Source of the DNA: a virus
IMG/VR virus record: IMGVR_UViG_3300021591_000018
Coordinates: 12,754-76,753 of that record
Strand: one strand, 5' to 3'
DNA: 64,000 nucleotides
The position numbers and the translations under genes were made by a program. The notes under the pieces are model-generated. The model was not told the DNA's origin and searched no databases. It worked only from the letters and a program-made list of their open reading frames with translations. Positions 19,132-59,684 of this stretch are shown here, piece after piece (within the stretch, counting starts at the first letter, position 1; every line of letters begins with the position of its first letter).

Positions 19132-19135
19132 CCTA

Positions 19136-19558: not shown

Positions 19559-19984
19559 ACAACGCAGCGATGAACGCCTCCGTCGGTCTGTAAAATTGCT
19601 TTCTGATCATCTGTCTCGCCTTCTCTAAGTCGCCTTCTAAGATTTCATCCAGGATATCAACAAGTCGTCGCTCTTCGAGTGAGATCATGCCATAAGGCCT
19701 ATAAGGCCAATCGCGAGTAATGGCGTCTCTCAGTTCGCGAACTACTTCAAGCCGTGCCTTATGATTCGACACTCCGATCACCTACGAGGATCTCTTTTAG
19801 AGTTTGAATCGTCTCCTCTAACCGTCTTTCTAGCGATTGAAAATACTCGAGTTCTCGTTCGGCTTCTTCTCGCTTGGACCGTAGAAACTCCAAGAGGTCG
19901 TAGAGCACATCCAACATCTAGCTCACCTTTGAAGTTCTCACGTTCTAACTTGGTAATGCTTCGACTATCGATAACTTCCAACTT

Positions 19985-20389
19985 CTAGATATGACAGTCG
20001 ACGATTACGACTAGTGCATCGGGATTTACATCCTTAATTACTTCGTGGAAGTCGAAGCTCTTCGTACCTTCGATTGACTCCCACCATCGTCCGTACCAAA
20101 CTCCATTCTTAAGTACACAGGGTGGTTCGTCCATAGCGTCCCAGTTAACGTACTTCGCATAAGTTGCATTACACCGTGGTTCATAGGCCGGTACATCAAG
20201 TTCTCTCAGTGGAATCCAGCCTGAATACCGACCTCCTATCACGTACCAGTCCCAGTGCCCTTGTGGGTTGTGAGGATAACTATCCACAACTTCAAGCTCT
20301 TCCCAGAACGGCATCATGGCTTCGTGTACGTCCTCAACAAGTGACTCAAGTTTACCGTGATCTATGATAACGAGTAACGGGTAATGCAT
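19985..20389 (-). CDS. Virus hypothetical protein
   Basis: WDWYVIGGRYSG motif resembles a recurrent phage protein family (from memory). Confidence 0.55.
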   Translation of the reverse strand: MHYPLLVIIDHGKLESLVEDVHEAMMPFWEELEVVDSYPHNPQGHWDWYVIGGRYSGWIPLRELDVPAYEPRCNATYAKYVNWDAMDEPPCVLKNGVWYGRWWESIEGTKSFDFHEVIKDVNPDALVVIVDCHI

Positions 20390-20393
20390 GACC

Positions 20394-20576
20394 TCACCTC
20401 CTCAACAACCTACGTAAGTCGAGTTTAGTCTCCTCCTCTCCATGCAAGATTCTCCGTATGTAGTTCCTACGATTACGTTTCCTCGGGAAGGGACTCTTGC
20501 TAAGATTAGTCTTAGGAATCTTTGGTGTTTCCCGTCTTACCTTACCTGCTTTAGTTAAGCTTCCATGAGTTGGCAT
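20394..20576 (-). CDS. rps30e: Ribosomal protein eS30 homologue
   Basis: MPTHGSLTKAGKVRRETPKI...PRKRNRRNY matches the eS30 signature HGSL.KAGKVR.QTPK; GGTGA RBS. Confidence 0.9.
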   Translation of the reverse strand: MPTHGSLTKAGKVRRETPKIPKTNLSKSPFPRKRNRRNYIRRILHGEEETKLDLRRLLRR

Positions 20577-21191
20577 CTATTCACCTTCTTTGAGTTTCTT
20601 TGTGAGCCACTCAAGGAATTCAAAGAATCCAACTCCAATTAGTACACCGAACATCATAACTAACGGAAATGCTAGTAAGAAGAGATTTCCTAACTTACTC
20701 ATCTGTCACCCTCCTCGGACAAATCCTCGACAGAAAATACGGGCACTTAGGAGGACACTCACGCCAGTCCGTCGAGATGTATTTCTCTAGGACTGGGCAG
20801 TAGACCGTTCGCATTGACGTGTGGTCTTTCATACACGTGATTTCCAACGTTTCTCACCTCTTAGGATGTGTTCGAGGATATTCTTGACATACCATTTCCA
20901 AGCTTCGTTTGTAAACGTCACACCTACACCTCCAAAGTGTAAGATCGCGGATCACCTGCCTTACAGAGAGCACCGATCCAGATTAATCCAAGAGTTCCGC
21001 GCATATCAGGATTGTAATATTGAGGTTCATCATAATCCGAATAGAACTTATACCACTCACGGAGATAACGAAGTTCTGAGAGAAAGATTAGAGTTGCTTT
21101 GACGTAAACCTTTAACATTTCCAAGGCTCGTTTTACGAAGGGTTGACTCAAGAACCTACGATATCGTTCAGTAGGAACAAAGACAAGTCTC

Positions 21192-21791
21192 TCAGTCATG
21201 TCTGAAGAGCTCATTTCGATACCTCAAGATTACTCTGGACAGCAAATACTCGGCAATTACACGGAACGCACACTTTCCAATTGCTGGTACGTATAGTCCA
21301 CACCGTTCGTTACATGGTTCTAAGGTTTCAGTAGCGGCAGATAGGAACGGACAGATCATCTCGACTTCCTCTGTCTTCTCTTCTTTCCCGTACTCTCTGT
21401 AGCCAGGTGGTACCTTTCCATCTAGGATGAGTCCAGCGACATTCTGCTCTCTCGGAACCCACTGGAAGCTTGCCATCTGTACCGACTTCAGAAGTTCTTT
21501 AGCTACATCATGGTAAAGGTAAAGTGGAGCCTTATGTACACTGTAATGTCCAGTCATCTGTTCGATAACGAGCTGTGAGTCCCCGACGAATTCAACATTC
21601 CTTTGTTTGTTACGGAAGATTGCGTAGATGAGTGCCAAGTACTCTGCTTGGTTGTGAGTCCTCGGTATCGGTAGCCCTAGCATATCTGAAACTTCTCTGA
21701 AGGACTTTATGATGTATTGCTTTGTTGTCTCATTGGCTATACAAATCTGTTCGGTCTTCATGCTCGCATCGAAGTAGACCCTTTGCATCAC
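21192..21791 (-). CDS. RNase HI-like protein with C-terminal Cys-rich extension
   Basis: VYFDAS, THNQAEYLALI, GDSQLVIEQMTG and WVPREQN. Confidence 0.85.
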   Translation of the reverse strand: MMQRVYFDASMKTEQICIANETTKQYIIKSFREVSDMLGLPIPRTHNQAEYLALIYAIFRNKQRNVEFVGDSQLVIEQMTGHYSVHKAPLYLYHDVAKELLKSVQMASFQWVPREQNVAGLILDGKVPPGYREYGKEEKTEEVEMICPFLSAATETLEPCNERCGLYVPAIGKCAFRVIAEYLLSRVILRYRNELFRHD

Positions 21792-22474: not shown

Positions 22475-24553
22475 TCAATTAAATTTTGAGACGGTTCCAT
22501 CAAACAGATGGCGTTGACGATATTCCTCCTGTTTGCCTTGATTCCAGTTCTGTACAGGACGGTAGTATCCCGTGATTCGACTGTAAACCTCACAAGTGCT
22601 CTTACATGACGGACAGACGTCATGATGTCCTGGCCAATATCCACAGTTCGGACAGATACTGAACGTAGGTGTGATGGTTACGTACGGTAGACGGAAACTG
22701 TAGAAGATTCGTCGTATGAGCTTGCTACATCCTTCCCAGGATGGCAAAGCTTCTCCTAGCCAGGTGTGGAAGACAGTCCCTCCAGTGTAAAGCTCCTGTA
22801 GAAGTTCCTGATGTTCGAGTGCCTCAGCAAGGCTGAACTCTACCCACACCGGCAGTTGTGTTGAGTTCGTATAGTATGGCGTCTCCTTACCTGACGTGTA
22901 GATATCATCGAACATCTGTCGATCAATCAACGCCAATCTATAACTGCAACTCTCAGCAGGAGTTGCCTCCAGATTGTAGAGGTGACCAGTCTCTTCCTGG
23001 AAGTCAACTAAACGTTCACGCATGAACATGAGGACGTCAATCATGAACTCACGTCCCTCGTCAGTCTCAATTCCCTTACCGAGGTAGTTCATACAGCACT
23101 CATGCCCACCAACGATTCCAATCGTTGAGAAGTGATTTGTCCAGTAGCTACCTGTTGCATCTTTAATCGGTTGAAGGTACTTTTGTGAGTATGGATAGAG
23201 TCCAACTTCAGTTAACTTCTCGACTGTTTTACGTTTCAACTCAAGGCTTTCCTTTGCAAGTTGCATCAATTCGTCCAACATCTCGAAGAATTCATCATCG
23301 TCGTTTGCTATGTAACCAATTCGTGGGAGGTTAATCGTCACGACTCCAATTGAGCCTGTCATTGGGTTTGCTCCGAAATACCCTCCACCTTTCCTGTAGA
23401 GTTGACGTGTGTCCAGACGGAGACGACAACACATACTACGCACTTGGTCTGGACTCATGTCGCTGTTGATAAAGTTCGCAAAGTAAGGCGATCCATACTT
23501 CGCAACCAACTTCCAGAGGGACTCGTCGTCCCAAGTGAAGTCAGGTGTCACGTTATACGTTACTATCGGAAATGTAAAGATCCGTCCATTTGCGTCTCCC
23601 TCGTACATGGCTTCACAATAGACTTCGTTGAACAAGTCGACCTCGTCCTGAAAGTCACCGTAGACGTCGCCTTTCAACTCACCTCCACAGATTACGGCTT
23701 CATTCTCCATAAACTTCGGAACGATTCGGTCGAACGTCACATTGGTGAATGGCGTTTGGAACCCGACTCTCGTCGGAACGTTCATGTTGAAGAGGAACTC
23801 CTGTAGCTCTTGTTTCACTTCATCTCGAGTAAGTCCATCGTATCGTATGAATGGTGCGAGATACGTATCGACGTTGCTGAATGCTTGTGCACCAGCAGCC
23901 TCTCCTTGTAACGTATAGAGGAAGTTCCAAATCTGTCCAAGTGCACTACTGAAGTGCTTAGGTGGTTTACTCTTGATCTTTCCGAAGACACCACCAAAAC
24001 CTTCGATTAACAGTTGTCGTAAGTCCCATCCGACACAGTACGGACCAAGTACACCAAGGTCATGTATGTGGAAGTCACCGTCCTGGTGAGCTTTACGAAT
24101 CCCAGGTGGATAAACTCTCATCAACCAATACTCTGAGATGCTACGCTGTACGAGGTAGCAATTCAAACCTTGCATCGAGTAACCGATGTTCGCATTCTCC
24201 CGAACCATCCAGCTGCTACGATTGAGATACTCGTCAATAACGTCACCTGACTCGATGAGATGTGCCAATCTCCGCATTGTCATACGTTGTTCTCTGTAAA
24301 GTATGTATGCTCTTGCAACCTCATAGTATCCATGCTTCATGAGGACTTTCTCTACGATGTCCTGAATCTCCTCGACAGTCGGGACTCCATCGTCTCCAAA
24401 TCGTCGTCCTATGTACCAGAGAACAGAGTTGACGAGTTTTTCGACGTCTCCTCTCGTACCTACTGCTCGGAAAGCTTTCTCTATAGCTGTCCTGATCCTC
24501 TCACGGTCAAACTCAACAAGACGACCGTTTCTCTTTCGAACGTACTTTACCAT
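22475..24553 (-). CDS. nrdD: Anaerobic (class III) ribonucleoside-triphosphate reductase with ATP cone
   Basis: VRKRNG ATP cone, HIHDL, SMCCRL, TPAES and the glycyl-radical motif YSRITGYYRPV. Confidence 0.95.
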   Translation of the reverse strand: MVKYVRKRNGRLVEFDRERIRTAIEKAFRAVGTRGDVEKLVNSVLWYIGRRFGDDGVPTVEEIQDIVEKVLMKHGYYEVARAYILYREQRMTMRRLAHLIESGDVIDEYLNRSSWMVRENANIGYSMQGLNCYLVQRSISEYWLMRVYPPGIRKAHQDGDFHIHDLGVLGPYCVGWDLRQLLIEGFGGVFGKIKSKPPKHFSSALGQIWNFLYTLQGEAAGAQAFSNVDTYLAPFIRYDGLTRDEVKQELQEFLFNMNVPTRVGFQTPFTNVTFDRIVPKFMENEAVICGGELKGDVYGDFQDEVDLFNEVYCEAMYEGDANGRIFTFPIVTYNVTPDFTWDDESLWKLVAKYGSPYFANFINSDMSPDQVRSMCCRLRLDTRQLYRKGGGYFGANPMTGSIGVVTINLPRIGYIANDDDEFFEMLDELMQLAKESLELKRKTVEKLTEVGLYPYSQKYLQPIKDATGSYWTNHFSTIGIVGGHECCMNYLGKGIETDEGREFMIDVLMFMRERLVDFQEETGHLYNLEATPAESCSYRLALIDRQMFDDIYTSGKETPYYTNSTQLPVWVEFSLAEALEHQELLQELYTGGTVFHTWLGEALPSWEGCSKLIRRIFYSFRLPYVTITPTFSICPNCGYWPGHHDVCPSCKSTCEVYSRITGYYRPVQNWNQGKQEEYRQRHLFDGTVSKFN

Positions 24554-24557
24554 CTGA

Positions 24558-24962
24558 TCACCTCGTGAAGGGGATCTCCTTACCAAAGGGAGTATTCTTT
24601 ACCTCTGGTAAGTTGGTAACATAGGCAACTAATTCAAAACTACAGTTGAACTTAAGAAGGATTTCTCTTAAGTCTTCGATAATATCAGTTGGTAATTCAA
24701 CTTTGAAGGTGACGTTCTCTAAGCTGTAAGTGTAATCTTCACCTGTTGAGGGCAACTTTTCAAGTTCTTCGAGCAAGATGCCGTTGAATGGCCCATATGT
24801 GTAGTTGTAATAGCTAAGTGATGTTAGTCTTCGACCAGTCTTCTGATAGTAGATTCTCTCGAGAAGATATGCTGTTTTGAGAAAGGTCATGACATCTACA
24901 GTTGAGTAACCTAGATTCTTAAGGATCTGACACACTGTTAACGCGTACTCATCTGGATTCAT
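24558..24962 (-). CDS. DUF4065/Panacea (SocA-like) domain protein
   Basis: LKTAYLLE..YY.KTGR.L....Y..Y.YGPF pattern. Confidence 0.55.
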   Translation of the reverse strand: MNPDEYALTVCQILKNLGYSTVDVMTFLKTAYLLERIYYQKTGRRLTSLSYYNYTYGPFNGILLEELEKLPSTGEDYTYSLENVTFKVELPTDIIEDLREILLKFNCSFELVAYVTNLPEVKNTPFGKEIPFTR

Positions 24963-45232: not shown

Positions 45233-45694
45233 TTGGACTGTAAAGTCTGTCAGTTGCCGGATGCCCCGGAGATCGTAAGACGTATCAAAGCCAACGAAAT
45301 CTCAATAGCCGAAGGAGCGAAGCTACTCGGTGTTAGTTACCGAGAACTCTGGTTGCACCTTAAGAATTGTGTGGTCGACAAGCCACGCGAAACTTCAGTT
45401 GATACACTCCAACTACTCGAGGAATTGCTGCGCATCCTACGACAGAAGCTGCTTGAGCTCGACAGAATGGAAGTCTCAACAGCCAACATTTCCGCTCTTG
45501 CTAAAGTCGCCGACAGTCTACGGAAGACTTGCATGGACATCGAGCGTCTAACAGGTAAATTAAGAGCGGCACCGCTTATACAGCTGCAGAAGATCACCAT
45601 CCACTACGAGAACCTTCTACAGATCATCTCAACGGAACTTTGTCCTGAATGTCGGCGTAAAGTCCTGAAGAAGCTCGAGGCGATGACAGTATGA
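45233..45694 (+). CDS. Putative terminase small subunit
   Basis: N-terminal HTH and coiled coil; overlaps the large terminase start. Confidence 0.6.
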   Translation: MDCKVCQLPDAPEIVRRIKANEISIAEGAKLLGVSYRELWLHLKNCVVDKPRETSVDTLQLLEELLRILRQKLLELDRMEVSTANISALAKVADSLRKTCMDIERLTGKLRAAPLIQLQKITIHYENLLQIISTELCPECRRKVLKKLEAMTV

Positions 45695-48231
45695 TCGATC
45701 CGAGAGAGAAAACCATCAAGATACTAAAAGCATTAGAAGACCCTGTCTACTTCTGTGAAGACGAGTACTTTCTCGGTGCGAAGCTCTACCCGAAGCAAGC
45801 TGAGGTGCTACGGAAGTTCTATAACGGTGGATACAATGAACTTGTACTCATCGCCGGGATGAGATGTCTTTCACCAGAAACCATCATCTACACAAACCCG
45901 TATCCAAAGCCGCTGAAGGAGTTGAACGAGGACGACCTTGTTCTTACGTTCCGTAACGGTAAATTCGAGTGGTGCAGATGCCAACTCATACGTCAACGCG
46001 CACGTATGGTCTACCGTCTTGTAACGTACTCAGGACGTGAAATCTACGCAACTGAGAATCACCCGATTCTAACGTCGAGAGGCTGGATGACGGTTTCATC
46101 AATGCTCGAATCGACCTCGTTACCTTACGTTGCAATGTGCCACAAAGTTCCTCCACCACTTCACCCAATACACGATCCAGATTATGCGACTGCTGTTGCC
46201 CTATTCCTCTCAGAGGGTTGCTGGATAACTTCGACTCCACTCTTCTCGAATCGTGACCCTGAGCTGATCGACACTTTGCGAACTGTACTAAAACGTCGAT
46301 TTAATGGAGAGTTACGTGGAGGACCGAAGGACTTTCGCATCATAAGTAAACAATTCCGTGAGGAGCTACATGAACTAAAAGGCAAGAAGTCCGCTGAGAA
46401 GTTCATCCCAAAGAGAGTCTTCGAACTTGACGATGAAAGTCTTAAGAAATTCATCTACTACTTCTGGAGAGGTGACGGTGGAATCGAAGGTGGTAAAGTT
46501 CACTTCTACAGCACAAGCAAGCGCTTACTGCAACAGCTACAATTTCTCCTCCTCCGATTCGGGATACGTAGCTACTTACGTAGACGTCCACAGTACAAAT
46601 ACTACAAACGTGCGCACCCAGAAATGAAGAGTACGAATGAGAGTTACGATCTCGTCGTACATGACGACATTTCAACGATCATTCCTGAGGCACCAAGGTG
46701 TCAACATAATGGCACATCACCAATGGATAAAATCGGACTCAAGTTAAGAGACCTTCGAGAAATTTGTGAAACCTCACTCTGGAAGCTACGTCAGCTTATG
46801 TGTACGAACACAAAGAACACCATAAGCTTAAAGAATGCACGTAAGATTGCTCATCTCATACCAATGTTCGGATGGGAAGACGTTTACTTCGAACCAATCG
46901 TTAGGATCGAGCCTATCGGAGTTCGTGAGACGTACGACTTATCTGTACCTCATGAAGGTCATGCATTCGTCGCGAATGGTATCATCGTTCATAACAGTGG
47001 CAAGACATTTCTCGCTTCTTGTTTCGCAGCTTACGAGGCGTTCAAGCTCTTGATTAAGCCTGACCCAGCTGCCTACTACAACCTGGCTCCAGGTAGTCCG
47101 ATCTTCATTGTCGTAGTTGCGACTTCTGAGAAGCAGGCTTACGATACGATATTCAACGAAATTAAACAAAAGTTAATGAGAAGTCCGTTCTTCCGTGAGT
47201 ATCATCCACGATTCCTCATGAACGAAATCATCTTCCAGTCAAAGAATGTACGCATACTCTGTGGTACGTCTTCATCTGCCTCATTAGTAGGTCGAAACGT
47301 TAAGTTAGCGATTTTTGACGAGCTGGCTCGATTCGAAGAGTCAACCAGTAAGAGAGGAGCTTGGGAAGTTTACACGTCATTGAAACGTTCAACTGCAACC
47401 TTTGGAAAGGAGGGCTACTGCATTTCGATTTCCTCGATCCGTCATCCAAATGACATTATGATGACTCTCTATCGTCAAGCTCAGACTAACCCAAGGATGT
47501 TCGCACTTAAGTTTGCCACGTGGGAGTTCAACCCAAACTTCAAACTCGAGGACTTTAAGTTCGAACTTCAACGAGACCCACTTGCATTCTGGAGAGACTT
47601 CGGTTCGAAGCCGTTTGCTGGTCAAGCACCCTTCTTCGCTAACATTGACGTCGTACCCTTCGATAGCAGTATACCAAACAACCTTGAGCTGCTCGCACGT
47701 GGAGAGAAGACCTACTTCAATGAGGAGGCAACCTATGTCTTGGCTGGTGACCCTGCTATTCGCCATGATGCATTCGGACTCGCTATCGTCCATGAAGTTG
47801 AACCTGGTCAGTACGTTTGCGACGGACTTTACCGTTTCAAACCAATGGGGACCGACCTTTCTCCAGTCGAGATAAAGAACTTCATCCTTCGCGTACTTGA
47901 CCACTGTAACGTCATAACTGCAGTTTTCGACACCTGGAACTTCCCAGAACTACAGGAGGAAATTCGCTCACATGGTGTCGAAGTGCTCAACCACATCGTC
48001 CGTAAGGAAGATTACGATCGCTTCAAAGAATTCTGTTTCAAACGGTGCATCCGAATATGTGACTATCCAATTCTTCGTCAGGAACTCGAACAACTTCAAA
48101 TTGTCAATGTCAAGAGGGTTGATCACCCACCTGGTGGAAGCAAAGACGTTGCCGATGCATTAGTCAATGCTCTATGGGCGATTTCCGAATTTCAACCTGA
48201 GCTACCGTTGAACGTGGCGGTGATCGTATGA
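45691..48231 (+). CDS. terL: Terminase large subunit containing an intein
   Basis: LYPKQ, Walker A AGMR|SGKT, ATSEKQA, IFDE (Walker B), and nuclease motifs AGDPA..HD and DHPPGGSKDVADA. Confidence 0.92.
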   Translation: MIDPREKTIKILKALEDPVYFCEDEYFLGAKLYPKQAEVLRKFYNGGYNELVLIAGMRCLSPETIIYTNPYPKPLKELNEDDLVLTFRNGKFEWCRCQLIRQRARMVYRLVTYSGREIYATENHPILTSRGWMTVSSMLESTSLPYVAMCHKVPPPLHPIHDPDYATAVALFLSEGCWITSTPLFSNRDPELIDTLRTVLKRRFNGELRGGPKDFRIISKQFREELHELKGKKSAEKFIPKRVFELDDESLKKFIYYFWRGDGGIEGGKVHFYSTSKRLLQQLQFLLLRFGIRSYLRRRPQYKYYKRAHPEMKSTNESYDLVVHDDISTIIPEAPRCQHNGTSPMDKIGLKLRDLREICETSLWKLRQLMCTNTKNTISLKNARKIAHLIPMFGWEDVYFEPIVRIEPIGVRETYDLSVPHEGHAFVANGIIVHNSGKTFLASCFAAYEAFKLLIKPDPAAYYNLAPGSPIFIVVVATSEKQAYDTIFNEIKQKLMRSPFFREYHPRFLMNEIIFQSKNVRILCGTSSSASLVGRNVKLAIFDELARFEESTSKRGAWEVYTSLKRSTATFGKEGYCISISSIRHPNDIMMTLYRQAQTNPRMFALKFATWEFNPNFKLEDFKFELQRDPLAFWRDFGSKPFAGQAPFFANIDVVPFDSSIPNNLELLARGEKTYFNEEATYVLAGDPAIRHDAFGLAIVHEVEPGQYVCDGLYRFKPMGTDLSPVEIKNFILRVLDHCNVITAVFDTWNFPELQEEIRSHGVEVLNHIVRKEDYDRFKEFCFKRCIRICDYPILRQELEQLQIVNVKRVDHPPGGSKDVADALVNALWAISEFQPELPLNVAVIV
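45865..46995 (+). mobile_element. Intein (377 aa) with LAGLIDADG homing endonuclease
   Basis: Starts CLSPET, block B ATENHPIL, endonuclease motifs LFLSEG and FWRGDG, ends FVANGIIVHN followed by Ser. Confidence 0.93.
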
Positions 48232-49694
48232 GTGCGATAAGACGTTTCCTGGCCCGTTTGACTGGTTCTAGTTCCAGTATGCCTGTTATAACTCAGTCGA
48301 TGATACGGTTTCCATCCTTAAGACCGCTAAAGGAGATTCTTGACAAACTCAATCGGATCTCAAACAAGTTCGAACTGTACCGGACTCTAAAGGAACTGGA
48401 CCCTGAGCTTTACGGTGCTATCGACCGAATTGCAAAGATGGTTCGCTACTCCTATCAGGGAGTCTTCGTACACGTTGGACGTGAACTCAGCGAGACTGAA
48501 CAGGAGCTTCAGCGAATTGCTCGTGAGTTTGCTGAGGAGCACGACCTTAAGTCAAAATTCTACACAGTTGCCGACTACCTCTTAACCTACGGGAACTACG
48601 TAGCGGTAACTAAGTTCCAGAAAGGTGCTGGTCTGGTCGCCTATCAGACGCTACCGATCGAACATCTTACAATTGTTGAGAAGAAGGAGCAAATCGGTGA
48701 TCCAACTGCACAAGTATTCGAATCGAACATCTACGTTCTCAATGAGACGTCGATGGACAAACAGAAGACATGGCCAGCTGACCAGATTCTCCACATCGCT
48801 TTGAATCGAGAAGGTTCCGTATTCCACGACATAACTGGCCGTTACACCTTCGGTGTGTGGGGCACCAGTCCAATCGAGCCACTGAAAGTCAAACTCCTCT
48901 GGAAGCTCTCTACCATCTACAACGACATACTGATACGTCAGCGACTTATCCCACGTGAACACCACAAACTTGACCTACGTGCATTTGACCCACGGTACTT
49001 CCCAGGTACAACCATGCAGGAGAAGTACAACAATGCACGAAAAGCAGCCCTTGACTTCATTAACGAGTACAAGACTAACATCGCGAAGATAACCGAACCT
49101 GACAGAAGCTACATCACCTCGAAGGACGTCGAAATCGAATTCGTCGAGCCGAAGAAAGTCACGTACGTTTCACCGAACGAACTCATCGAGCAGATCGACC
49201 TGTCTATCTTCTCAGTCATTGGTCCAGTCGAAACCGCGGTCACTGGACGCAGTCGACGGACGTATGCAACAGAACTGATCGTTGCCTCGTATGCAGTGTT
49301 AGTTGCCGAAACTCTCGCTGACATTATCAAGGCCGAGTTCTTGAAGCTTATCAAACGTCACATACGACTCAAGTACGGCTCACGATTCAGTGAGGAAGAT
49401 TTAAACAAGATCGACATTAAGGTGCGACTGACATTGGACGTACTACGTGGTGAAATTATCCGTCAGGTAGCCGTGCTAGCACAACTCGGTCTCTGTACGA
49501 CTGACGAACTACGTGCCATGATTGGTCTCGAGCCACTTACCGAGGATCAGATCCCACATGTCGTTACGAAGACTGGTCGTGCTGGACAGTACGTTCAGAC
49601 ACCTGCCGACGTCACGAGAGATGTAACAAAGCGAGTCAAACCGATTCCTCAGCCTTTAACACCTGAAAGTCGACGTGAGCGACAGGTGACGTAA
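48228..49694 (+). CDS. Portal protein
   Basis: Position after terL, 488 aa, YGNY, ILHI, WGTSPI and TTDELRAMIGLEPL. Confidence 0.8.
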   Translation: MSAIRRFLARLTGSSSSMPVITQSMIRFPSLRPLKEILDKLNRISNKFELYRTLKELDPELYGAIDRIAKMVRYSYQGVFVHVGRELSETEQELQRIAREFAEEHDLKSKFYTVADYLLTYGNYVAVTKFQKGAGLVAYQTLPIEHLTIVEKKEQIGDPTAQVFESNIYVLNETSMDKQKTWPADQILHIALNREGSVFHDITGRYTFGVWGTSPIEPLKVKLLWKLSTIYNDILIRQRLIPREHHKLDLRAFDPRYFPGTTMQEKYNNARKAALDFINEYKTNIAKITEPDRSYITSKDVEIEFVEPKKVTYVSPNELIEQIDLSIFSVIGPVETAVTGRSRRTYATELIVASYAVLVAETLADIIKAEFLKLIKRHIRLKYGSRFSEEDLNKIDIKVRLTLDVLRGEIIRQVAVLAQLGLCTTDELRAMIGLEPLTEDQIPHVVTKTGRAGQYVQTPADVTRDVTKRVKPIPQPLTPESRRERQVT

Positions 49695-49695
49695 G

Positions 49696-52600
49696 ATGAA
49701 AATCACCTTCCTTGGTACGAAGGGCTTCATCGAGGAAAGTAGTTCAGACCATAAGTATCACTCGTCTATTCTGATTGAGCGTGGCAACACACGTCTGCTC
49801 ATCGACTACGGTCGACTTCACCCGAAGTCACTTGACGAGATTAAGCCGACACATATCCTTTTGACTCACGGTCATCCTGACCATTGCTTCGGTTTCCGTG
49901 ACGAGACAGAAGATGGCATTGATGTCTATATGCTTGACCGTGTCTGGAATAGTTTACCGGAGAAAGTCCGTGAGAAGCTCGACCACAAGCCCTTCCATAT
50001 GCACCACTGGGAGAAGATCGGTGACCTCGAAGTCTACGCATTTCCTGTCAGTCACTCGATCGACTTTCCGACAAACGGGTTCCTCATTCGTAACGACAAG
50101 ACTGTTTGTTACTGCCCGGACGTTTTGTCGATAACTAATCGAAAGTTAATTCTCAGGAATGCCGACATTTACATTGGTGACGGCTCTTACATCACTGATA
50201 AGCCTGGTCGTGTACGCTACCATAAGGAAACTGGACGACCATACGGTCATGCACTCATACGTGATCAGGTCAAGTGGTGTGCTCAATCCGACGTACCGAT
50301 AGTCATCTTTACTCATTTTGGAAAAGAGGCAGTTGAACATCCCGATAAGCTTAAGGAACATCTCAAAAACCTCTCGAAGGAGTTTGATGTTAAGGTTATG
50401 GAGGCGAAAGATGGTATGACAATCGATACGACTAAGCTCGGACAGCCCGGAATCTACCTCGTCCCACCTCATGCAAGACTTATCACTGAGGGAAAGAAGA
50501 CAGCCATTGTGAGTACACGTCCATGCCCAAAGCAGTACCTCGACGTTCCGATACATTTGATCGAGGACAAGAAATCCTACGGGTTGATCCGAATAACAGA
50601 ATGCCACGGTCCACTTGACGCAGAGTTTGTACGGACACAACTTCGTCACCGACACCAAATCACGGATCGTGAATGGAGAGACTGGTGGCCTGATGCTAAG
50701 CAAGTCTACGTTTACGACTTCAAAATCGATAGGCTCTGGGACGAGCCAGTTCCAGTTGAGGTACCGCAAGGTATTCAAAAGTGGATACGCGACGTCAGGG
50801 TCAACCTTGCTGAACTTACAGCATACGCACTTGACGAGGAGGGCAACCTGACAAAGTTCGGTCAGGCGAAACAGTACAGAGTAAACGGTAAGACTATCGA
50901 AATCATAGGTTCAGGAGTCGAACGTGCGAAGAAGCTTGTCGAGATGGGTGTTAAGAAGGTCATCTGTGCAGCTATTGGTGAGGCCTCACGGACCGTTCTC
51001 GAACAGAACGGAGTTAAGGTTGAGGTTCGTGCCTCGCTTATCAAACCTGAACGTGTGAAGGAAGTTCTGAAGCATCCTGAACTACTCAAGGAGTGGACCG
51101 ATGAACAACTATTGGACGACCACCGTATCTGCCATCTATGGGCAGGAAAGAACTGGAAGACGTTGCCTCACGACTTGACCAAAGAAGAGGTCAAACGCTT
51201 CCACGATCTGTTAGTCGAGGAAATGAACCGTCGCGGTATGGAGCATACCACACCGTTGGAGCTTGAACGATCTGTGACGACAACCGAACGACAGTCATAC
51301 GATAATCTTAAAGATAATCTTCTTGAGAGTTCCAACATTTCTGAAGTCAACAAGCAAATTGTCGAGGAAGTTAAAGAACCATCTCCATATGCACCTGTTC
51401 ACCATATTGAGACCGGTGAGGACACAATAGAACTCGAGACAGTCCTTGAAGCTTGGAGTAAGCCTATCATACTCAAGAAGGGCTACGTAACGTTAGTCGG
51501 TGGACTAAGCAATCATGGTCGGACAGATGGTGACATCGACGTTTTGATCGGTGATCGTGAATGGGTGACTCATATCCATCAACCACTTCTATTCCGACTT
51601 GGACGTGCACTTCCAGATGACCTCGGTGAACGAATACAAATGATGTTCGTCGGTGAATACGGTGGTCCGTTCACTAACCACATACCAATCTACGACTTGG
51701 TTCTCATCCCATCAGCAGACCGTCGACTTATCCGTATGGAGAAAGTACCAACTCGAATCAAGCAACTTCGTGACCGTCAGGCCTTCAAAGAAGCGCTTGA
51801 ATCCTATCGTGAAGATGAAGTGAAACCACTCCGTTTCGTCATACCACTGAAAGGCTATCGAGCACATTACCGATTCGCTGACCTTGTTCCAGAAGTCGTC
51901 GAGGAGTGGTTCGAACGTGACGTTTATCCAATCTACGCTCAGAAGAAATACGATGGCTTCCGTGTACTGTTGATGAAGCAAGGTGACAAGATCATCATTC
52001 GTTCAGAAGACGGTGAAGACGTTACAAAACGCTTTCCGAAGATCATCGAACAAGCTAAGAAGATCCTTCCACATACCTGTACGCTTGACATCGAAGCTGA
52101 ACTTTGGAAAGATGGTAAACATCAACCACGTGAGGAAGCAGCTGGATATGCACATGCAAGAACTCCACCTGACGACAGTGGTTTTGTCTTCAATGTCTTC
52201 GACGTACTGTACTTCTACGATGAATCAGTTGAGCATCACGAGTTGAGTGGTACAATTGGTGACCTCCACAAACATCCATATGAGCTACGTTTACGCTACC
52301 TATCACTAATCGACTTCCCACAGTCAACTGACGACACACCAAAAACTCCAGCATTTAACCTGACTCCAACGTACGTTGCTCATAATCCTGAGGAATTAGC
52401 AAAGCTCGTACGTAAGTGTTCAGACTTCATTGCCTCAGAAGGTGCAGTCGTAAAGTCAAGCAAGAGCGACTATCCACTCGACGGACTAACCGATCAGTGG
52501 CTCAAATTCAAGAAAATGGCTGAAATTCACGCAATCGTACTTGATAACATCGAAACCAAGACGAAAGGTGTCTACAACCTCGTTGTAGGTGTCCGAGTTC

Positions 52601-53772
52601 CTCCAGGGTGGAAAGTCCCAGAGAAGCATCTCAGAGAGCTTAACGGTAAGAAGTACATCGTTATCGGTAAGACGTTTAATGTCAAAGGATATAAGAAGCC
52701 TGGTACGATCGTTACTGTGAGTTTCCATACGCTCAACCACTACATCGACAGTCAAACTGGTGAACAGTGGATTCACATCTACGAGCCAAAGTTCATCGAA
52801 GTTCGTGAAGGACAGAAGACACCTGACTCAGCTGAAGACGCAATTAAGATTGCTCACGACCTCGAATTGCTGACCGTCAAGAGACTTGCCCTCACTCGGT
52901 TCCCAATGGATGACAAGCCACACCAGGCAGTCCTTCAACACCACTACCGATGTGAGCTCGAACAACTTCTACCTGATGTCGGTGAACCAGGAAGTCCCTG
53001 GTTTGAGTTAGCATTAGACGAACTGATACAGAGACTTGGTGACCACATTGACAAGATCCGAGTCTTCCTCGGTCGATCTGTTCACACTGACTTCCGAATC
53101 AAAGTCAATGACCACCTTGAGGGCTTCACCATTATGGATGCAAAGCCAGGTGCAATCAAGGAACCCGTAACTTCAGTCGAACAAGCAAAAGAGTTGGAGA
53201 AAGACTGGGACAAGTACTTCAAGCTCTCCAACGATCCACAGACATACATTGCTTCACCACGACGTAAGCTATGGGTCGAACAGAAGAAGAGTGAACCGAA
53301 GGAATGGCTCAACGTCGAACGAGTCGTCAAACCAGGTGAAGTCGGTGCAACTAAACATGAGTACGGTGTCTTCTCAATCTTCGACCGACCAATCGTCTAC
53401 TTTGGCGCTGTTAAACCAGACTTCCTGGAGATGTTCCTCTACGGTAAGAAGTTTAACGGTCGTTGGGTTGTACGTCTACTCCCAAATCCATGGAAGCGAG
53501 AGATGCCACGACGTGAATTCGTCTTACTGATGTGGAAGCCTGAGGACCAAACACCTTACGTCCTTTCAAGTCGTGCTGTCCGGAGGAAATGGATTCCACC
53601 GAAGGGTATCAGTTGCCTACCACCAGAAATACGTCAACAGATACCCGAAGAATACCGCTACTGGAAGTTCGACGACAAACAGAAGCGACTTGAAGTCCGT
53701 GATAAGCTAGTCGAAGCCATTCGTAAAGGGGAGGTGAGAATACGTCCAGTGACGGTCAAACGGAGAAAGTAA
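49696..53772 (+). CDS. Multidomain protein: MBL-fold hydrolase + ASCH/PUA-like + NifX-like + NTase-like + ATP-dependent ligase + LigD-phosphoesterase-like
   Basis: THGHPDH; LITEGKKTA; VICAAIGE; G.TDGDIDVLI; KKYDGFR, FDVLY, EGAVVK, WLKFKK; LQHH...HTDFRI. Confidence 0.75.
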   Translation: MKITFLGTKGFIEESSSDHKYHSSILIERGNTRLLIDYGRLHPKSLDEIKPTHILLTHGHPDHCFGFRDETEDGIDVYMLDRVWNSLPEKVREKLDHKPFHMHHWEKIGDLEVYAFPVSHSIDFPTNGFLIRNDKTVCYCPDVLSITNRKLILRNADIYIGDGSYITDKPGRVRYHKETGRPYGHALIRDQVKWCAQSDVPIVIFTHFGKEAVEHPDKLKEHLKNLSKEFDVKVMEAKDGMTIDTTKLGQPGIYLVPPHARLITEGKKTAIVSTRPCPKQYLDVPIHLIEDKKSYGLIRITECHGPLDAEFVRTQLRHRHQITDREWRDWWPDAKQVYVYDFKIDRLWDEPVPVEVPQGIQKWIRDVRVNLAELTAYALDEEGNLTKFGQAKQYRVNGKTIEIIGSGVERAKKLVEMGVKKVICAAIGEASRTVLEQNGVKVEVRASLIKPERVKEVLKHPELLKEWTDEQLLDDHRICHLWAGKNWKTLPHDLTKEEVKRFHDLLVEEMNRRGMEHTTPLELERSVTTTERQSYDNLKDNLLESSNISEVNKQIVEEVKEPSPYAPVHHIETGEDTIELETVLEAWSKPIILKKGYVTLVGGLSNHGRTDGDIDVLIGDREWVTHIHQPLLFRLGRALPDDLGERIQMMFVGEYGGPFTNHIPIYDLVLIPSADRRLIRMEKVPTRIKQLRDRQAFKEALESYREDEVKPLRFVIPLKGYRAHYRFADLVPEVVEEWFERDVYPIYAQKKYDGFRVLLMKQGDKIIIRSEDGEDVTKRFPKIIEQAKKILPHTCTLDIEAELWKDGKHQPREEAAGYAHARTPPDDSGFVFNVFDVLYFYDESVEHHELSGTIGDLHKHPYELRLRYLSLIDFPQSTDDTPKTPAFNLTPTYVAHNPEELAKLVRKCSDFIASEGAVVKSSKSDYPLDGLTDQWLKFKKMAEIHAIVLDNIETKTKGVYNLVVGVRVPPGWKVPEKHLRELNGKKYIVIGKTFNVKGYKKPGTIVTVSFHTLNHYIDSQTGEQWIHIYEPKFIEVREGQKTPDSAEDAIKIAHDLELLTVKRLALTRFPMDDKPHQAVLQHHYRCELEQLLPDVGEPGSPWFELALDELIQRLGDHIDKIRVFLGRSVHTDFRIKVNDHLEGFTIMDAKPGAIKEPVTSVEQAKELEKDWDKYFKLSNDPQTYIASPRRKLWVEQKKSEPKEWLNVERVVKPGEVGATKHEYGVFSIFDRPIVYFGAVKPDFLEMFLYGKKFNGRWVVRLLPNPWKREMPRREFVLLMWKPEDQTPYVLSSRAVRRKWIPPKGISCLPPEIRQQIPEEYRYWKFDDKQKRLEVRDKLVEAIRKGEVRIRPVTVKRRK

Positions 53773-53773
53773 A

Positions 53774-54149
53774 CGGTACACTCACGATACAAATTCGTCG
53801 ACGACTAGGACTCTACCTCTACTTTTACCCACAGGTCGTCATCTTCGGTGACAAACCTTACCTCAAGCAATTGCGTCACAGATTCGGTGGACGAATCTAT
53901 AGTGGAGCTGACAATCGCCTTGTCATCACAGGGTGGAGGAGTGTCAAGCACGTACTTTCCTCTTTGACTTTCGCTAACGAAAGGAAACAAACTATATTGC
54001 TTTCCCTTTGTGATCTTTACCGTCAGCATGGTCCTCGATTCTACCTTGAGGATGAGGCACTCGACTTACTTTACGAATTTGCTCAACTTTCTCCCGGTGC
54101 GAGACGTTTACGTTCAGTTGTTAGCCAACTGAAAAACCTCCAAACGTAA
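53774..54149 (+). CDS. Degenerate LAGLIDADG-like ORF (start uncertain)
   Basis: Frame stays open upstream of TTG 53871: G.LTIQI....YFYPQVVIF...YLKQLRHRFGGRI. Confidence 0.4.
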
Positions 54150-54175
54150 ATATAAACTCACAAAGACTTTTATCA

Positions 54176-54787
54176 GTGACAGGTGGTTCAATGGAAGAGC
54201 TCGAGGCAACCTTCATCGTTCAACTCGGCGATACTGAGACCGAAATGCAACTTCCAATCACCATTTCAGCTGGTCAAATGTTACCTGTTGATGTCCGTCT
54301 ACGTGAAGTGCCCGAACCACCTGACATTGAGCGACCAATCACTGCTCCAGCTGTACTTCAACATCATTGGTGGATGGCTGAAGTGAAACCTGTTCGGGTT
54401 GGTCCCTCAACTGAACACTGGGACTTGCGAATCGAATGGGACAAGCAGAAACCTCTCATTCACTGGATCCTCCAGGACAACCCCCTAGCAGTTGACGAGA
54501 CAGTTGCAATCTTCGACTGGTGCGACGATCACGGTTGGATGAAGAAGGGTGAAAAGCTCGAGTACATTCCACCTGGTAAACCCGGAAATCCAACTCGTGA
54601 TACACCGGCATACATCGAAATCATCGACAAAGGTCAAGTTCGCATCTACGAGTCATCGGACATGTTCATGAAGCTCGACATCATGTTCGACGAATTGAAG
54701 GGGCATTTCGTATTCATTCGTCGTGAACCTTCAATGAATCTTTGGACGTTTCGTCGTGAGGAAGCAAGTCCAAAGGAGGTGAGGTGA
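54176..54787 (+). CDS. LigD 3'-phosphoesterase-like domain protein
   Basis: AVLQHHW...HWDLRIE, IIDKGQV and LKGHFVFIR. Confidence 0.6.
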   Translation: MTGGSMEELEATFIVQLGDTETEMQLPITISAGQMLPVDVRLREVPEPPDIERPITAPAVLQHHWWMAEVKPVRVGPSTEHWDLRIEWDKQKPLIHWILQDNPLAVDETVAIFDWCDDHGWMKKGEKLEYIPPGKPGNPTRDTPAYIEIIDKGQVRIYESSDMFMKLDIMFDELKGHFVFIRREPSMNLWTFRREEASPKEVR

Positions 54788-55971
54788 TGCAGACCGTACA
54801 TCTGACCCATCCCTTCACATTCTATCGACTTGACAACGCTCTACGAATCCGTGGAACTTTGTTAGCCGAGGGGAAGTGGTGTGGACTTGACCGACATCCT
54901 GTGTACTATCCACGAGATGTAATTCAGAAAGCAGCTCCGACAATCATTGGCAAACCTATCAAGTACGGTCACAGTGATCGTGCAGAGGCAGTTGTTGGTT
55001 TTGTAACTGCAGCTGAGGTTGCCGATAGTCGTATTGACTTCGAGGGCTACATCTTCGACAAGGAGACGATCGAGGAAATCGAATCCGGTCGCATCAATGG
55101 TATCTCAATGGAGGCACTTGTCTCCACTGAAGATGGTCCTGACGGTCCAGTTGCAAAAGAAATCACATTCCAGGCTGCTGCATTGGTCCTAAATCCGGCA
55201 TGTGAAGTATGTCGAGTTGAGACTATAGTTCCTGTTTTCCTAGAAGAGAAGGAGGGAGAAAATATGGCCGAGGATTTCTGGAAGAAGGTCAGGGACGCCT
55301 TGGTGAAGGCTGACATCGACGAGGCTACTGCTGACAAGGTCATCGAGGTGCTGAAGGGCATCATACAGATCCCGTATCCTTACCCACAGCCCAAGAAGCA
55401 GGAGGACGTTCAGGAGCAGTCTGCCACTCCACCTGAGCCAGAGGACATTGAACTGCCCGAGGACTTTGTTGAATTGGCTGAGAAGCCGTCTCGAAGGCAG
55501 TTCCTCAACTGGCTCAGGAGACAGTTCAAGCAGGCTGGACTTGATGCTGACACCATAAAGAAGGTAATGGCAGTCATAACGAAGGCTATCAAGACTCCGT
55601 ATCCGTATCCGTATCCAAGCCCGAAGAAGATGGAGAGTCCCGAAGACGACGAGCGAGTCAAGGAGCTCGAGTCGGAGCTTGAGACTCTGAAGACGCAACT
55701 CGAGGACTACCGCAAGAAGGAGATCGAGCGACTCGTCGCCGACATTCGAGAGTTTGACGAGTCGTTTGATGCCGAGTCCTTCCTTGAGGGTGTTGAGGAC
55801 CACGATCTCCGGGTAAGGATGCTGGAGAAGCACCTCGAGACAGTTAAGAAATTTGCTAAGCAGAAGGTCGCTCTACAGGTCGATGCCACTAGTGAACTCG
55901 AGCAGAGAGTCCGCAAGGTACTGCAGAACATGGGTATTAGCGATGTAAAGGCATTCCTTGAGGAGAGGTGA
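54784..55971 (+). CDS. Prohead protease/scaffold protein
   Basis: N-terminal protease-like domain (KPIKYGH, GISME, ALVLNPAC) and acidic coiled-coil C-terminus; upstream of the capsid gene. Confidence 0.75.
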   Translation: MMQTVHLTHPFTFYRLDNALRIRGTLLAEGKWCGLDRHPVYYPRDVIQKAAPTIIGKPIKYGHSDRAEAVVGFVTAAEVADSRIDFEGYIFDKETIEEIESGRINGISMEALVSTEDGPDGPVAKEITFQAAALVLNPACEVCRVETIVPVFLEEKEGENMAEDFWKKVRDALVKADIDEATADKVIEVLKGIIQIPYPYPQPKKQEDVQEQSATPPEPEDIELPEDFVELAEKPSRRQFLNWLRRQFKQAGLDADTIKKVMAVITKAIKTPYPYPYPSPKKMESPEDDERVKELESELETLKTQLEDYRKKEIERLVADIREFDESFDAESFLEGVEDHDLRVRMLEKHLETVKKFAKQKVALQVDATSELEQRVRKVLQNMGISDVKAFLEER

Positions 55972-55977
55972 TAGAAG

Positions 55978-56406
55978 ATGGCGTTTGTAAAGGACGAGAA
56001 CCTGCTCTACGGGACACTTGATAGCAACGTCTCGGTTCAGCAGGCTGGCCTTTGTCTCAAGCTTGCCTCCGATGGTGAGCTTGAGCTTTGCTCGGCTGGC
56101 GACAGATGCATAGGCGTGGCTGCTATGACGACTGAGGACCCACTCAATCCAGGAACCTACAAGACCGGTGTCAGAATCGCTTACATCAGGAGAGGTGTCG
56201 TTGAACTTGTCCTACCTGACGACAATGCTGCGATTAGCCCTGGTGACCTGTTGGCTACTGACGATAACGGTAAGGTCGACAAGGCCACTATCGATACGAC
56301 CGATGCTGACTCACTTTACGCTAGCCTCAAGGCAATCGTTGGCATTGCTCTTGAGTCCGTTGACGCCAACTCTGGTGGAACCATAAAGGCTGTCCTAATG
56401 CTGTGA
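55978..56406 (+). CDS. Head decoration/cement protein
   Basis: IGVA, ISPGDLLATDDNGKV and VGIALE pattern; between scaffold and MCP. Confidence 0.7.
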   Translation: MAFVKDENLLYGTLDSNVSVQQAGLCLKLASDGELELCSAGDRCIGVAAMTTEDPLNPGTYKTGVRIAYIRRGVVELVLPDDNAAISPGDLLATDDNGKVDKATIDTTDADSLYASLKAIVGIALESVDANSGGTIKAVLML

Positions 56407-56407
56407 G

Positions 56408-57322
56408 GTGGTTAAGATGGAGGACCTGAAGGTTCTGCTTTCGGATGAAGAGTGGAAGAAGCTGCAGGCTACCGCCTCTGACACCGCCATACGAAGAGAG
56501 ATCATACGCCAGCTCGTCTACAGGAAGGCCGACTTCATCAGCACTGGCGTTAAGATCGTCGGAGTACAGGAGTTCGACAACCTCGACGTGAAGTTCAGCT
56601 TCCCGTCTGAGGCTGAGGTCGATTATCCTGTACCTGAGTTTGCTGGTGCTGACCTCACGAGGATCACCTGGACCGACTTCTCCTTCAGCCTGCAGAAGGC
56701 TGAGGGTCGGTTCTTGGTGAGCGACGAGGCCATGATAAGAGGTGTCGACAAGGTACAGTGGCAGACTGGCATAAAGAGACTTGCCGAGGCATTCGCCAAG
56801 AAGAAGGACGAGAATATCTTGGATACACTTGCTACTGGTGCCGGCAATACTTTCGCTGCTTCTGCCACCTGGGATTCAGCTACTGCTGCCCAGATAACAA
56901 CTGACGTCTCCAAGGCTGTTGGTTACATCCTCGACGCACCCGGTGTAACTGATGCTGACATGAAGAATATCGTCTTCGTTGTACCACTAGACGCTTGGAC
57001 CGGACTACTGAGAATCCTTGAGGTCGAGGGCGTCAGAGTTAGCATGTTCAACTGGCTACAACAGAGCTACGGTATCAGCATAATGCCAACGAAGCACTTC
57101 GACACCTACGGGATCGCCTTGCTCAAAGGTAGCGACACTGCCATTCACGGTGTGCTCAGACCACCTGCTGGTATACCTCTAGTCGAGGAGAAGAGACATG
57201 AGGGTATCGGTACCGAGTACATCGTGAGGCAGTTCTTCGCTACCAAGGTCGTCCCTGACTCATCGAGTACCAGCACGTCGAGCAGGATCGTAAAGATAAC
57301 TGGCCTGGCCTCATCCTCATAA
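56408..57322 (+). CDS. Major capsid protein (HK97 fold)
   Basis: Position, 304 aa, VPE.A motif, K......S.EA pattern, downstream terminator. Confidence 0.75.
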   Translation: MVKMEDLKVLLSDEEWKKLQATASDTAIRREIIRQLVYRKADFISTGVKIVGVQEFDNLDVKFSFPSEAEVDYPVPEFAGADLTRITWTDFSFSLQKAEGRFLVSDEAMIRGVDKVQWQTGIKRLAEAFAKKKDENILDTLATGAGNTFAASATWDSATAAQITTDVSKAVGYILDAPGVTDADMKNIVFVVPLDAWTGLLRILEVEGVRVSMFNWLQQSYGISIMPTKHFDTYGIALLKGSDTAIHGVLRPPAGIPLVEEKRHEGIGTEYIVRQFFATKVVPDSSSTSTSSRIVKITGLASSS

Positions 57323-57366
57323 GGCTGAAGGCCAGCCTGCAGCTAGTTCCTACATTTTTTCCTTCT
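57322..57366 (+). terminator. Putative terminator after the MCP gene
   Basis: AGGCTG/CAGCCT hairpin followed by a TTTTTTCCTT tract. Confidence 0.5.
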
Positions 57367-57380
57367 GGCTAGTTTAAGGT

Positions 57381-57797
57381 GTGTTTATGAGTGACGTTCC
57401 TGAAGAGCCTCTCTGGGCAGAAGCCACTAAGAAGGTTTTAGTCGAAGTCCTACGTATCGCAACCGTCTTTGTGGTTAATTCACTTGATCAAGATATTACA
57501 GTCCAGATTAAGGGCATGCGGACTGAGGAGTATTCAAGCGTCGTTGATGTTGGCCCAAGTTTTACCGTAGCATCCGAGTCTGTAGATGCACGAACCTTGA
57601 CACCCGAGACATCCGGTTGGCTTCCATATATAACCGTAGAACTCCAGTGTTCGTCTGCCCCGTCAAGTGGCTCTGTCACGGTTTATCTCATCAAGTCCCA
57701 GGGCTACGAGGAAGTGCTCGTCGATGCACTAGAGATCCGAGACTCAAATGTACATAATCCATCAACTGATTCCGAAATCTCTATTCTTGAGTGGTGA
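57381..57797 (+). CDS. Putative virion protein
   Basis: Beta-rich, S/T/V-rich ORF in the head module. Confidence 0.5.
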   Translation: MFMSDVPEEPLWAEATKKVLVEVLRIATVFVVNSLDQDITVQIKGMRTEEYSSVVDVGPSFTVASESVDARTLTPETSGWLPYITVELQCSSAPSSGSVTVYLIKSQGYEEVLVDALEIRDSNVHNPSTDSEISILEW

Positions 57798-58162
57798 TCA
57801 CCATGTTGCGTCCGCTTGCTGTTCCTTTGGACGTTGATACACTTTCGACCGAAAGCAGTGCAAGTGGAGTAATTGATACCGGTTCATCAACACCACCGGT
57901 TACGATTCTGACTCCGAGCTCCGGTCGACGTATTAGCACTCGAGGAGCTTACCTTTTCTCCAACAGCGATACTGGAACAATTACAATGAAGTACCAGAAT
58001 TCAAACAATGTAATTCTCAAGGTCTACTGTGACAAGTTTAAAGTTGCCACAACCCCGAAGATCAGGTTTGACGGTCCGATAGACGCGTCCATTGTTATCG
58101 AGTGGGAAGGACTTTCATCCGGCTCTGAAATCCTCTGGATCCTCTCGTACAAAGAGGTGTGA
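57791..58162 (+). CDS. Putative virion protein
   Basis: Beta-rich ORF in the head module. Confidence 0.5.
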   Translation: MVITMLRPLAVPLDVDTLSTESSASGVIDTGSSTPPVTILTPSSGRRISTRGAYLFSNSDTGTITMKYQNSNNVILKVYCDKFKVATTPKIRFDGPIDASIVIEWEGLSSGSEILWILSYKEV

Positions 58163-58166
58163 CCAT

Positions 58167-58436
58167 ATGGATAGCGTTACCGAACGTCTAGCTGTGGTCG
58201 AGACGGAGGTGCGACACCTACGTGAAGAAATCGGAGAGTTAAAGCTAAAACTCTCCAACTTCAAGAAAGAAGTCTACCGTCGTCTCAACAACATCAACCG
58301 TCAGCTTAACGACCTTCACTTGGCAGTTAACAACCACTCATCGTTGTCGGGCAAAGAGAAAGCTGCCATAATCGTTGCACTCATCACCTCGATCTCCTCC
58401 ATTGTGGTCGCACTCATTCAGACGCTCGTCCACTGA
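58167..58436 (+). CDS. Coiled-coil protein with C-terminal TM helix (holin/XhlA-like architecture)
   Basis: MDSVTERLAVVE coiled coil followed by AAIIVALITSISSIVVALI. Confidence 0.55.
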   Translation: MDSVTERLAVVETEVRHLREEIGELKLKLSNFKKEVYRRLNNINRQLNDLHLAVNNHSSLSGKEKAAIIVALITSISSIVVALIQTLVH

Positions 58437-58485
58437 CAAACAACTACCTTTAAGTATCGTTTATGCTACAATATGAAGTGAGACA

Positions 58486-59680: not shown

Positions 59681-59684
59681 GAAA

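Follow-up and report, generated by a model that had tools for sequence, protein, structure and literature searches.

An eS30 ribosomal protein gene in the genome of a tailed virus with archaeal-type host markers

Ribosomal protein eS30 is limited to TACK and Asgard archaea and to eukaryotes, and is one of three small-subunit proteins with this distribution (PMC11698992). In the 30S subunit of Saccharolobus solfataricus the mRNA entry channel contains eS30, which touches helix h16; the N-terminal end of the protein, including Pro2, is packed against h44 close to the A site (PMC11698992). An earlier reading of a metagenomic virus sequence (hereafter the original prediction) proposed that eS30 is encoded by an archaeal virus, and its placement of the protein near the mRNA entry and decoding region agrees with this structure. 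The locus raises the questions of whether the gene is intact, whether it belongs to the virus, to which host it points and what its product might do during infection. The window analysed here is a stretch of 64,000 nt, comprising bases 12754-76753 of a 76,753-bp IMG/VR record; coordinates refer to the window unless the record is named (Table 1).

The eS30 gene and its operon

The eS30 ORF matched the Pfam family Ribosomal_S30 (PF04758) with an E value of 2.8e-12 and a score of 47.1 bits, passing the gathering threshold of 27, with residues 3-45 aligned to profile positions 2-44 of 58. Against the NCBIfam equivalog for archaeal S30e (NF006817) the score was 73.4 bits (E 9.2e-21), which misses the cut-off of 75 by 1.6 bits because of a divergent tail. 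Archaeal eS30 chains were the best matches in PDB (9e71_Ba, E 1.9e-13; 9fhl_e, E 2.4e-10), followed by eukaryotic eS30 at about 1e-6. The protein starts with the archaeal signature Met-Pro-Thr-His-Gly-Ser-Leu-Thr-Lys-Ala-Gly-Lys-Val-Arg, including Pro2 and His4, which is identical to the cellular consensus, and has a basic helix at approximately residues 33-44. Its length of 60 aa can be set against a cellular range of 46-69 (n=79) and its net charge of +14 against a cellular median of +13, while position 16 is Glu in the viral protein and Gln in ~90% of cellular proteins. The intact eS30 signature described in the original prediction was borne out by the PF04758 score, the PDB matches and the absence of internal stops, and the ORF is best read as a real, intact eS30 gene.

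The gene is located in a replication and accessory module, apart from the virion genes, and is surrounded by small, tightly packed, co-directional ORFs of the virus, as had been described. A ribosome-binding site of its own, also part of the original prediction, was identified as a Shine-Dalgarno-like GAAGGTGA. This site is embedded in the last codons of the upstream ORF of 41 codons, whose TAG stop (20577-20579) abuts the eS30 start. At the other end of the gene, AGGAGGTGA also serves as the Shine-Dalgarno sequence for the gene that follows, which has its ATG at 20389. As the Shine-Dalgarno site of eS30 lies inside the preceding ORF and the end of eS30 provides that of the following one, the gene is wired into a tightly coupled, co-directional operon.

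Table 1. Position and strand of the features discussed, in window coordinates; percentages are amino acid identities to the related virus G001
Feature	Position	Strand	Remarks
TATA-binding protein (TBP), two-repeat	16190-16711	-	PF00352, 60 and 36 bits; from Pfam sweep of remaining ORFs
Zinc-ribbon protein, 140 aa	19136..19558	-	Conserved flank; 39% identical in G001
Variable accessory island, 1.6 kb	19559..21191	-	eS30 and six small ORFs, between two G001-conserved genes
Downstream ORF, 134 aa	19985..20389	-	Weak match to phrog_10079
eS30 CDS	20394..20576	-	ATG start, 60 aa, no internal stops
AGGAGGTGA	20394..20402	-	Last two Arg codons and TGA stop of eS30; read from sequence
Upstream ORF, 41 codons, hydrophobic	20577..20702	-	Own GGAGGGTGA site; no family match
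Shine-Dalgarno-like GAAGGTGA	20581..20588	-	4 nt upstream of eS30 ATG; read from sequence
RNase H-like protein	21192..21791	-	PF13456, phrog_531; conserved flank; 37% identical in G001
Anaerobic ribonucleotide reductase NrdD with ATP-cone	22475..24586	-	1.9 kb from eS30; host-like
Spt5/NusG-like NGN-KOW protein	40532-40981	-	PF03439, 39 bits; G001 homologue 35% identical
Virion module	45691..60656	+	Marks contig as tailed virus
TerL with LAGLIDADG intein	45691-48231	+	Intein at ~residues 98-435
Portal candidate	48228-49694	+	By position only
MBL/ligase protein, 1358 aa	within 45691..60656	+	
Scaffold	54784-55971	+	
Major capsid protein, HK97-type	56408-57322	+	PF25209
Tail tube	59685-60656	+	PF18906

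Placement within a viral genome

In addition to the virion module, the genome encodes a fused exonuclease-PolB, NrdD, QueC, a PD-(D/E)XK nuclease and the RNase H-like protein. On gene content, with an HK97-type capsid, terminase and tail genes present alongside archaeal-type host markers, the virus is assigned to the tailed viruses (Caudoviricetes). The two ends of the record were found to belong together. An ORF at 61576-63999 (+) continues in frame at record bases 1-327, giving 916 aa in total, and in a related virus, G001 (IMGVR_UViG_3300021591_000021, Ga0190338_1000003; 76,879 bp), a single uninterrupted gene aligns with the joined ORF through the joint. Since the record end joins the start in frame, this is a closed or circularly permuted complete genome with no host flanks. 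IMG/VR classes the record as linear and CheckV estimates it to be 69% complete; despite this estimate, the 76,753-bp record is a complete genome.

G001 is syntenic with the eS30 virus across most of the genome, with protein identities of 35-75%, and this synteny is present on both sides of eS30. The nearest genes conserved in G001 lie 0.6-0.8 kb from eS30 on either side and enclose the variable island (Table 1). The eS30 gene was not found in G001, in which the same slot is occupied by ~5.4 kb of unrelated small ORFs with no ribosomal protein. This marks eS30 as a lineage-specific accessory gene that this virus group can do without. The 134-aa ORF downstream of eS30 had no counterpart in G001 or in the cellular eS30 neighbourhoods examined, and no relative in IMG/VR. 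NrdD was likewise missing from G001, together with most of an ~18-kb stretch of small ORFs (about 22000-40000), and the eS30 virus genome is read from this comparison as containing a large lineage-specific accessory region. The terminase match in G001 covered 457 of the 846 residues of TerL, which is consistent with an intein-less terminase in G001. Two other ribosomal proteins, eS26 and eS25, were sought across the whole virus record and neither was found.

An eS30 gene in such a record could in principle be an artefact, either because host DNA was wrongly assembled with a viral contig or because a provirus was recovered together with bordering host DNA. The record derives from a metagenome assembly, and its CheckV and IMG/VR ratings are in keeping with an artefact of this kind. 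However, eS30 lies close to G001-conserved genes on either side, the record closes on itself in frame without a host flank, and its composition is uniform, with a GC content of 0.45 for the eS30 gene vs 0.47 for the virus and with GC and GC3 values that match those of neighbouring genes. When the regions up to 1.5 kb around 80 cellular eS30 genes were compared, none of the six other island ORFs had a counterpart there. At the nucleotide level the viral eS30 resembled cellular genes over its first ~100 nt only, and outside eS30 neither nucleotide nor protein comparison revealed similarity to the surroundings of cellular eS30. The exact eS30 protein is also listed in a protein collection, where its contig has a length of 24,219 nt instead of 76,753 nt, a difference that suggests a second assembly. 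The neighbouring region was recovered from another sample as well: a 2,243-nt contig of a different metagenome (L100; Ga0190337_1006304), which ends 1.2 kb short of eS30, was 96.7% identical to window positions 16933-19175, and a strain variant of the virus therefore exists. The original prediction had named a host chimera as one outcome that would overturn it, and closure, two-sided synteny and the lack of host neighbours all argue against this. Given the absence of host flanks and the synteny with G001 on both sides, an assembly chimera is very unlikely, and next to no weight is placed on an artefactual origin in either form. The viral eS30 sits inside a bona fide viral genome.

No match to the viral eS30 or to the capsid protein of its virus was found in INPHARED (GenBank phage and archaeal-virus records), and PHROGs contained no family matching the viral eS30. 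G001 was the only match in IMG/VR searches with the capsid protein and the conserved flank protein. A second copy of this eS30 from this virus group was found neither in IMG/VR nor in one metagenome scan; the same scan also gave distant zinc-ribbon matches, all without eS30.

Archaeal host and divergence of the viral protein

The original prediction attributed the gene to an archaeal virus, and this attribution is supported by the presence of viral TBP and Spt5 homologues, by the taxonomic limits of the eS30 family and by the nearest named homologues of eS30 and NrdD, which are from Bathyarchaeia. The two-repeat TBP marks the host as archaeal. This protein is ~30% identical to the TBPs of five archaeal lineages alike, and therefore gives no host resolution; identity to the G001 homologue is 36%. 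A literature search for TBP in archaeal Caudoviricetes gave nothing relevant. ERCC4/XPF and TrmB-type regulators were also found in the virus by the Pfam sweep. For NrdD, all but one of the best named matches were from Bathyarchaeia, at 60-63% identity. The best cellular match to the viral eS30 was from a Bathyarchaeota MAG (71% identity), and Bathyarchaeia made up most of the best 80 genome matches. A phylogenetic tree of eS30, reconstructed from 55 columns, placed the viral sequence weakly (89/4) beside non-Bathyarchaeia Thermoproteota, next to a Bathyarchaeia clade and away from Asgard. Judged from these genes the host is archaeal, and it is likely to belong to Bathyarchaeia or a close Thermoproteota lineage.

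Conserved positions were defined from 79 cellular eS30 sequences alone, with the viral row excluded from the definition. All 18 columns with at least 90% conservation were retained by the viral protein, while its other 42 columns were 32% identical on average and 45% at most. Among the retained residues are Pro2 and His4 of the N-terminal tail, whose location is given as h44 and the A site in PMC11698992. The nearest protein among ~15 billion was 69% identical. Comparisons of viral and cellular genes, which span the whole virus-to-cell path, gave pS values of 0.70-0.93 and pN values of ~0.28-0.34, with synonymous sites saturated for all pairs but one. Retention of the core with pN well below pS argues for selection on the ribosome-facing core, and a cellular identity of no more than 71%, near-saturated pS and the kept core argue against recent capture from a sampled genome. 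The divergence could have arisen in a donor that has not been sampled and not during a long stay in the virus. The end branch of the viral eS30 was ~4 times the median length in the tree (0.37 vs 0.085), and this also fits relaxed selection or a new function.

One element of the original prediction, a C-terminal extension, did not hold. The viral protein has 21 residues beyond the conserved Tyr39, a tail length that falls between the cellular extremes of 8 and 26 (median 17; n=79), and tails at least as long were present in 13 of the 79 cellular proteins. An extension beyond cellular length was rejected since the tail length is ordinary; the unusual property is an acidic composition, with four acidic residues in the viral tail and a maximum of three among the 79 cellular tails. 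Residues 47-60 are divergent, acidic and Leu-rich, and an AlphaFold model (mean pLDDT 73) predicts a tail helix at residues 48-59 with a pLDDT of ~64-68. In the S. solfataricus 30S subunit the last eight residues of eS30 are disordered (PMC11698992), so that changes in the tail need not alter binding. The altered tail is probably a peripheral part of the protein, with the functionally implicated head kept. Cellular archaeal eS30 proteins (e.g. that of Saccharolobus solfataricus, PDB 9fhl, PMC11698992; and 9e71_Ba) thus share with the viral copy the family, size class, N-terminal signature and basic helix. The viral copy differs in not being beside cellular genes, in Glu16 and in an acidic, Leu-rich, predicted-helix tail in place of the usual Arg-rich end.

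Viral ribosomal proteins and possible roles of the viral eS30

Viral ribosomal proteins had been described in the original prediction as mainly reported from phages, which agrees with the survey of Mizuno et al. 2019, in which 14 ribosomal proteins were found in viruses and all predicted hosts were bacterial (PMC6375957). The sole eS30 in that survey is the fau sequence of FBR murine sarcoma virus (PMC6375957). This sequence is a eukaryotic FUBI-eS30 fusion that is antisense in the retrovirus and is not translated as eS30 (PMC11499249). Our pattern scan recovered it as L012; no other eS30-related sequence is listed for a cultivated virus, and its origin and mechanism are unrelated to those of the archaeal-virus eS30. 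Other ribosomal proteins have been described in archaeal viruses, namely eL21 in four Hafunaviridae, termed the first examples for archaeal viruses (Liu et al. 2021, PMC8651126), bL19 in the Bathyarchaeia virus Kunpengvirus (PMC10541130), and S6e, L15, L15e and L30 in archaeal proviruses (PMC13573593). These are different proteins from eS30, which belongs to the small subunit and is positioned where mRNA enters and at the A site. None of PMC8651126, PMC10541130 and PMC13573593 lists eS30, and no report of eS30/S30e in archaeal viruses was found in the searchable literature. Kunpengvirus has a Bathyarchaeia host, as the eS30 virus probably does, but its published description differs from the eS30 virus, in which PolB is fused to an exonuclease (PMC10541130). 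The closest parallels are phage bS21 and bL12, in each of which a single small peripheral ribosomal protein is encoded by an accessory gene of a tailed virus, in a variable context, and presumably replaces the host protein (PMC6375957). In contrast to the viral eS30, which is an archaeal/eukaryotic-type protein of an archaeal virus and is known from sequence, the phage proteins are of bacterial type and both their incorporation and purifying selection on them have been demonstrated (PMC6375957). The archaeal-virus eS30 is a further case in this established class of virus-encoded ribosomal proteins.

A survey of virus contigs, which the original prediction had suggested, found eS30 in at least ten other IMG/VR contigs of prokaryote viruses by pattern scan. 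In ten of these (L002-L011) eS30 was located beside virus-like genes, including DNA methylases, glycosyltransferases, RNR, UDG, ligase, RNase H, a homing endonuclease and TFIIB, with no ribosomal operon nearby, and one of the ten contigs has terminal repeats and is rated 100% complete. Five contigs of 38-82 kb (L002-L006) encode an identical eS30 of 79 aa, at ~9929-10168 in each locus, in which a basic N-terminal head of ~22 residues is found in place of the usual Met-Pro start. These five formed a supported viral eS30 clade (98/94) with L008 and L009. For L002-L011, no genes within 10 kb on either side were shared with the eS30 virus and no match to its TerL was found. An AU test of a single clade uniting this eS30 with the other viral eS30 group gave a p value of 0.11, by which such a clade is neither supported nor rejected. 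The eS30 proteins of L002-L011 have a changed N-terminal head or are much more divergent, whereas in the virus described here the head is unchanged and the tail alone differs. Within 10 kb of eS30, L007, L010 and L011 carry genes for RNR, UDG, DNA ligase, PAPS reductase, a DNA methylase and a TFIIB-repeat protein, the last being another archaeal-type transcription factor in a viral context.

The best explanation of these data, to which a probability of roughly 0.6 is assigned, is that the gene encodes a functional eS30 that was captured from a Thermoproteota host, most likely one of the Bathyarchaeia, and that occupies the eS30 site of host 30S subunits, sustaining or tuning translation. It builds on family identity, core conservation, the viral and archaeal context and the operon signals, from which we infer expression, incorporation and an effect on translation. 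The gene would be transcribed with its co-directional neighbours of the replication/accessory operon during infection, and its own Shine-Dalgarno site would direct translation. On the shoulder of the host 30S subunit, at helix h16 and the channel through which mRNA enters, the protein would then fill the eS30 site, with its unchanged N-terminal tail lying against h44 at the A site and its more acidic, Leu-rich C-terminal tail displayed on the outside of the subunit. The pay-off may be that the supply of ribosomes is kept up during infection, or that ribosomes are tuned toward viral mRNAs led by Shine-Dalgarno sites. Entry into host ribosomes is likely, and the proposal of the original prediction that the viral protein may replace that of the host and bias translation is a reasonable one. 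A functional eS30 is favoured because the gene recurs in at least ten other viral contigs and because phage bS21 and bL12, which enter ribosomes (PMC6375957), provide a precedent. It is weakened by the finding of no other virus with this eS30 in IMG/VR and one metagenome scan, by the lack of the gene in G001, by the long end branch, by the NF006817 score under the cut-off and by the possibility of an unsampled donor.

Two other explanations accept the gene as viral. The gene may be a passenger, a host eS30 picked up by illegitimate recombination into a hypervariable island, of no benefit to the virus and conserved for lack of time, the capture perhaps being recent and from an unsampled host lineage. 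This would suit an island that is entirely different in G001, which is without eS30, and also the incomplete sampling of donors and the lack of a second viral copy for a selection test in IMG/VR and one metagenome scan. It is nevertheless rather unlikely, as the eS30 stop region supplies the Shine-Dalgarno site for the viral gene that follows and the site used by eS30 lies inside an upstream viral ORF, no flanking host DNA was carried along and the GC content matches the virus, substitutions spare all 18 conserved columns, and eS30 is present in the other viral contigs. The protein may alternatively have a role outside the working ribosome, as a decoy or inhibitor that shuts off translation in the host, for example by obstructing the eS30 site or a step of assembly, or as a general binder of viral RNA or DNA. 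A small and very basic (+14) protein with an altered tail might act in this way, and the accelerated branch, the acidic Leu-rich tail (predicted to be helical at modest confidence), Glu16 at a position that is Gln in ~90% of cellular proteins and the location in a replication/accessory module are compatible with such a role. However, every conserved residue that faces rRNA or the decoding site is retained, as a working ribosomal protein needs, and the viral ribosomal proteins so far tested do enter ribosomes (PMC6375957), and a non-structural role is thus considered unlikely.

A functional eS30 would have implications beyond this virus. It would add to the evidence for translation interference by viruses of uncultured sediment archaea. 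A viral variant in which the decoding-site head is kept and the tail changed may also serve as a ready-made probe of the role of eS30 in archaea. The TBP and Spt5 homologues in the same genome suggest that the virus takes over host gene expression more broadly; diverged forms of both are common to the eS30 virus and G001, while eS30 is present in the former only. A more speculative and improbable extension is that this lineage assembles its own gene-expression layer from TBP, Spt5 and, here, eS30, that 30S subunits specified by the virus would prefer its strongly Shine-Dalgarno-led, tightly coupled operons, and that eS30, in view of the other eS30 contigs, is a recurrent target through which archaeal viruses alter mRNA entry and decoding in eukaryote-like ribosomes.

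Other features of the genome lie away from the eS30 island. A gene set for 7-deazaguanine synthesis (preQ0/archaeosine-type), encoded on the minus strand at about 2500-6600 and including 4605-5348, comprises QueC, GTP cyclohydrolase I, PTPS/QueD, a radical-SAM QueE-like protein and a QueF-like protein, and is mostly conserved in G001. This gene set suggests that the viral DNA may be modified. In the composition table, a GC skew of -0.50 was recorded for positions 44001-46000.
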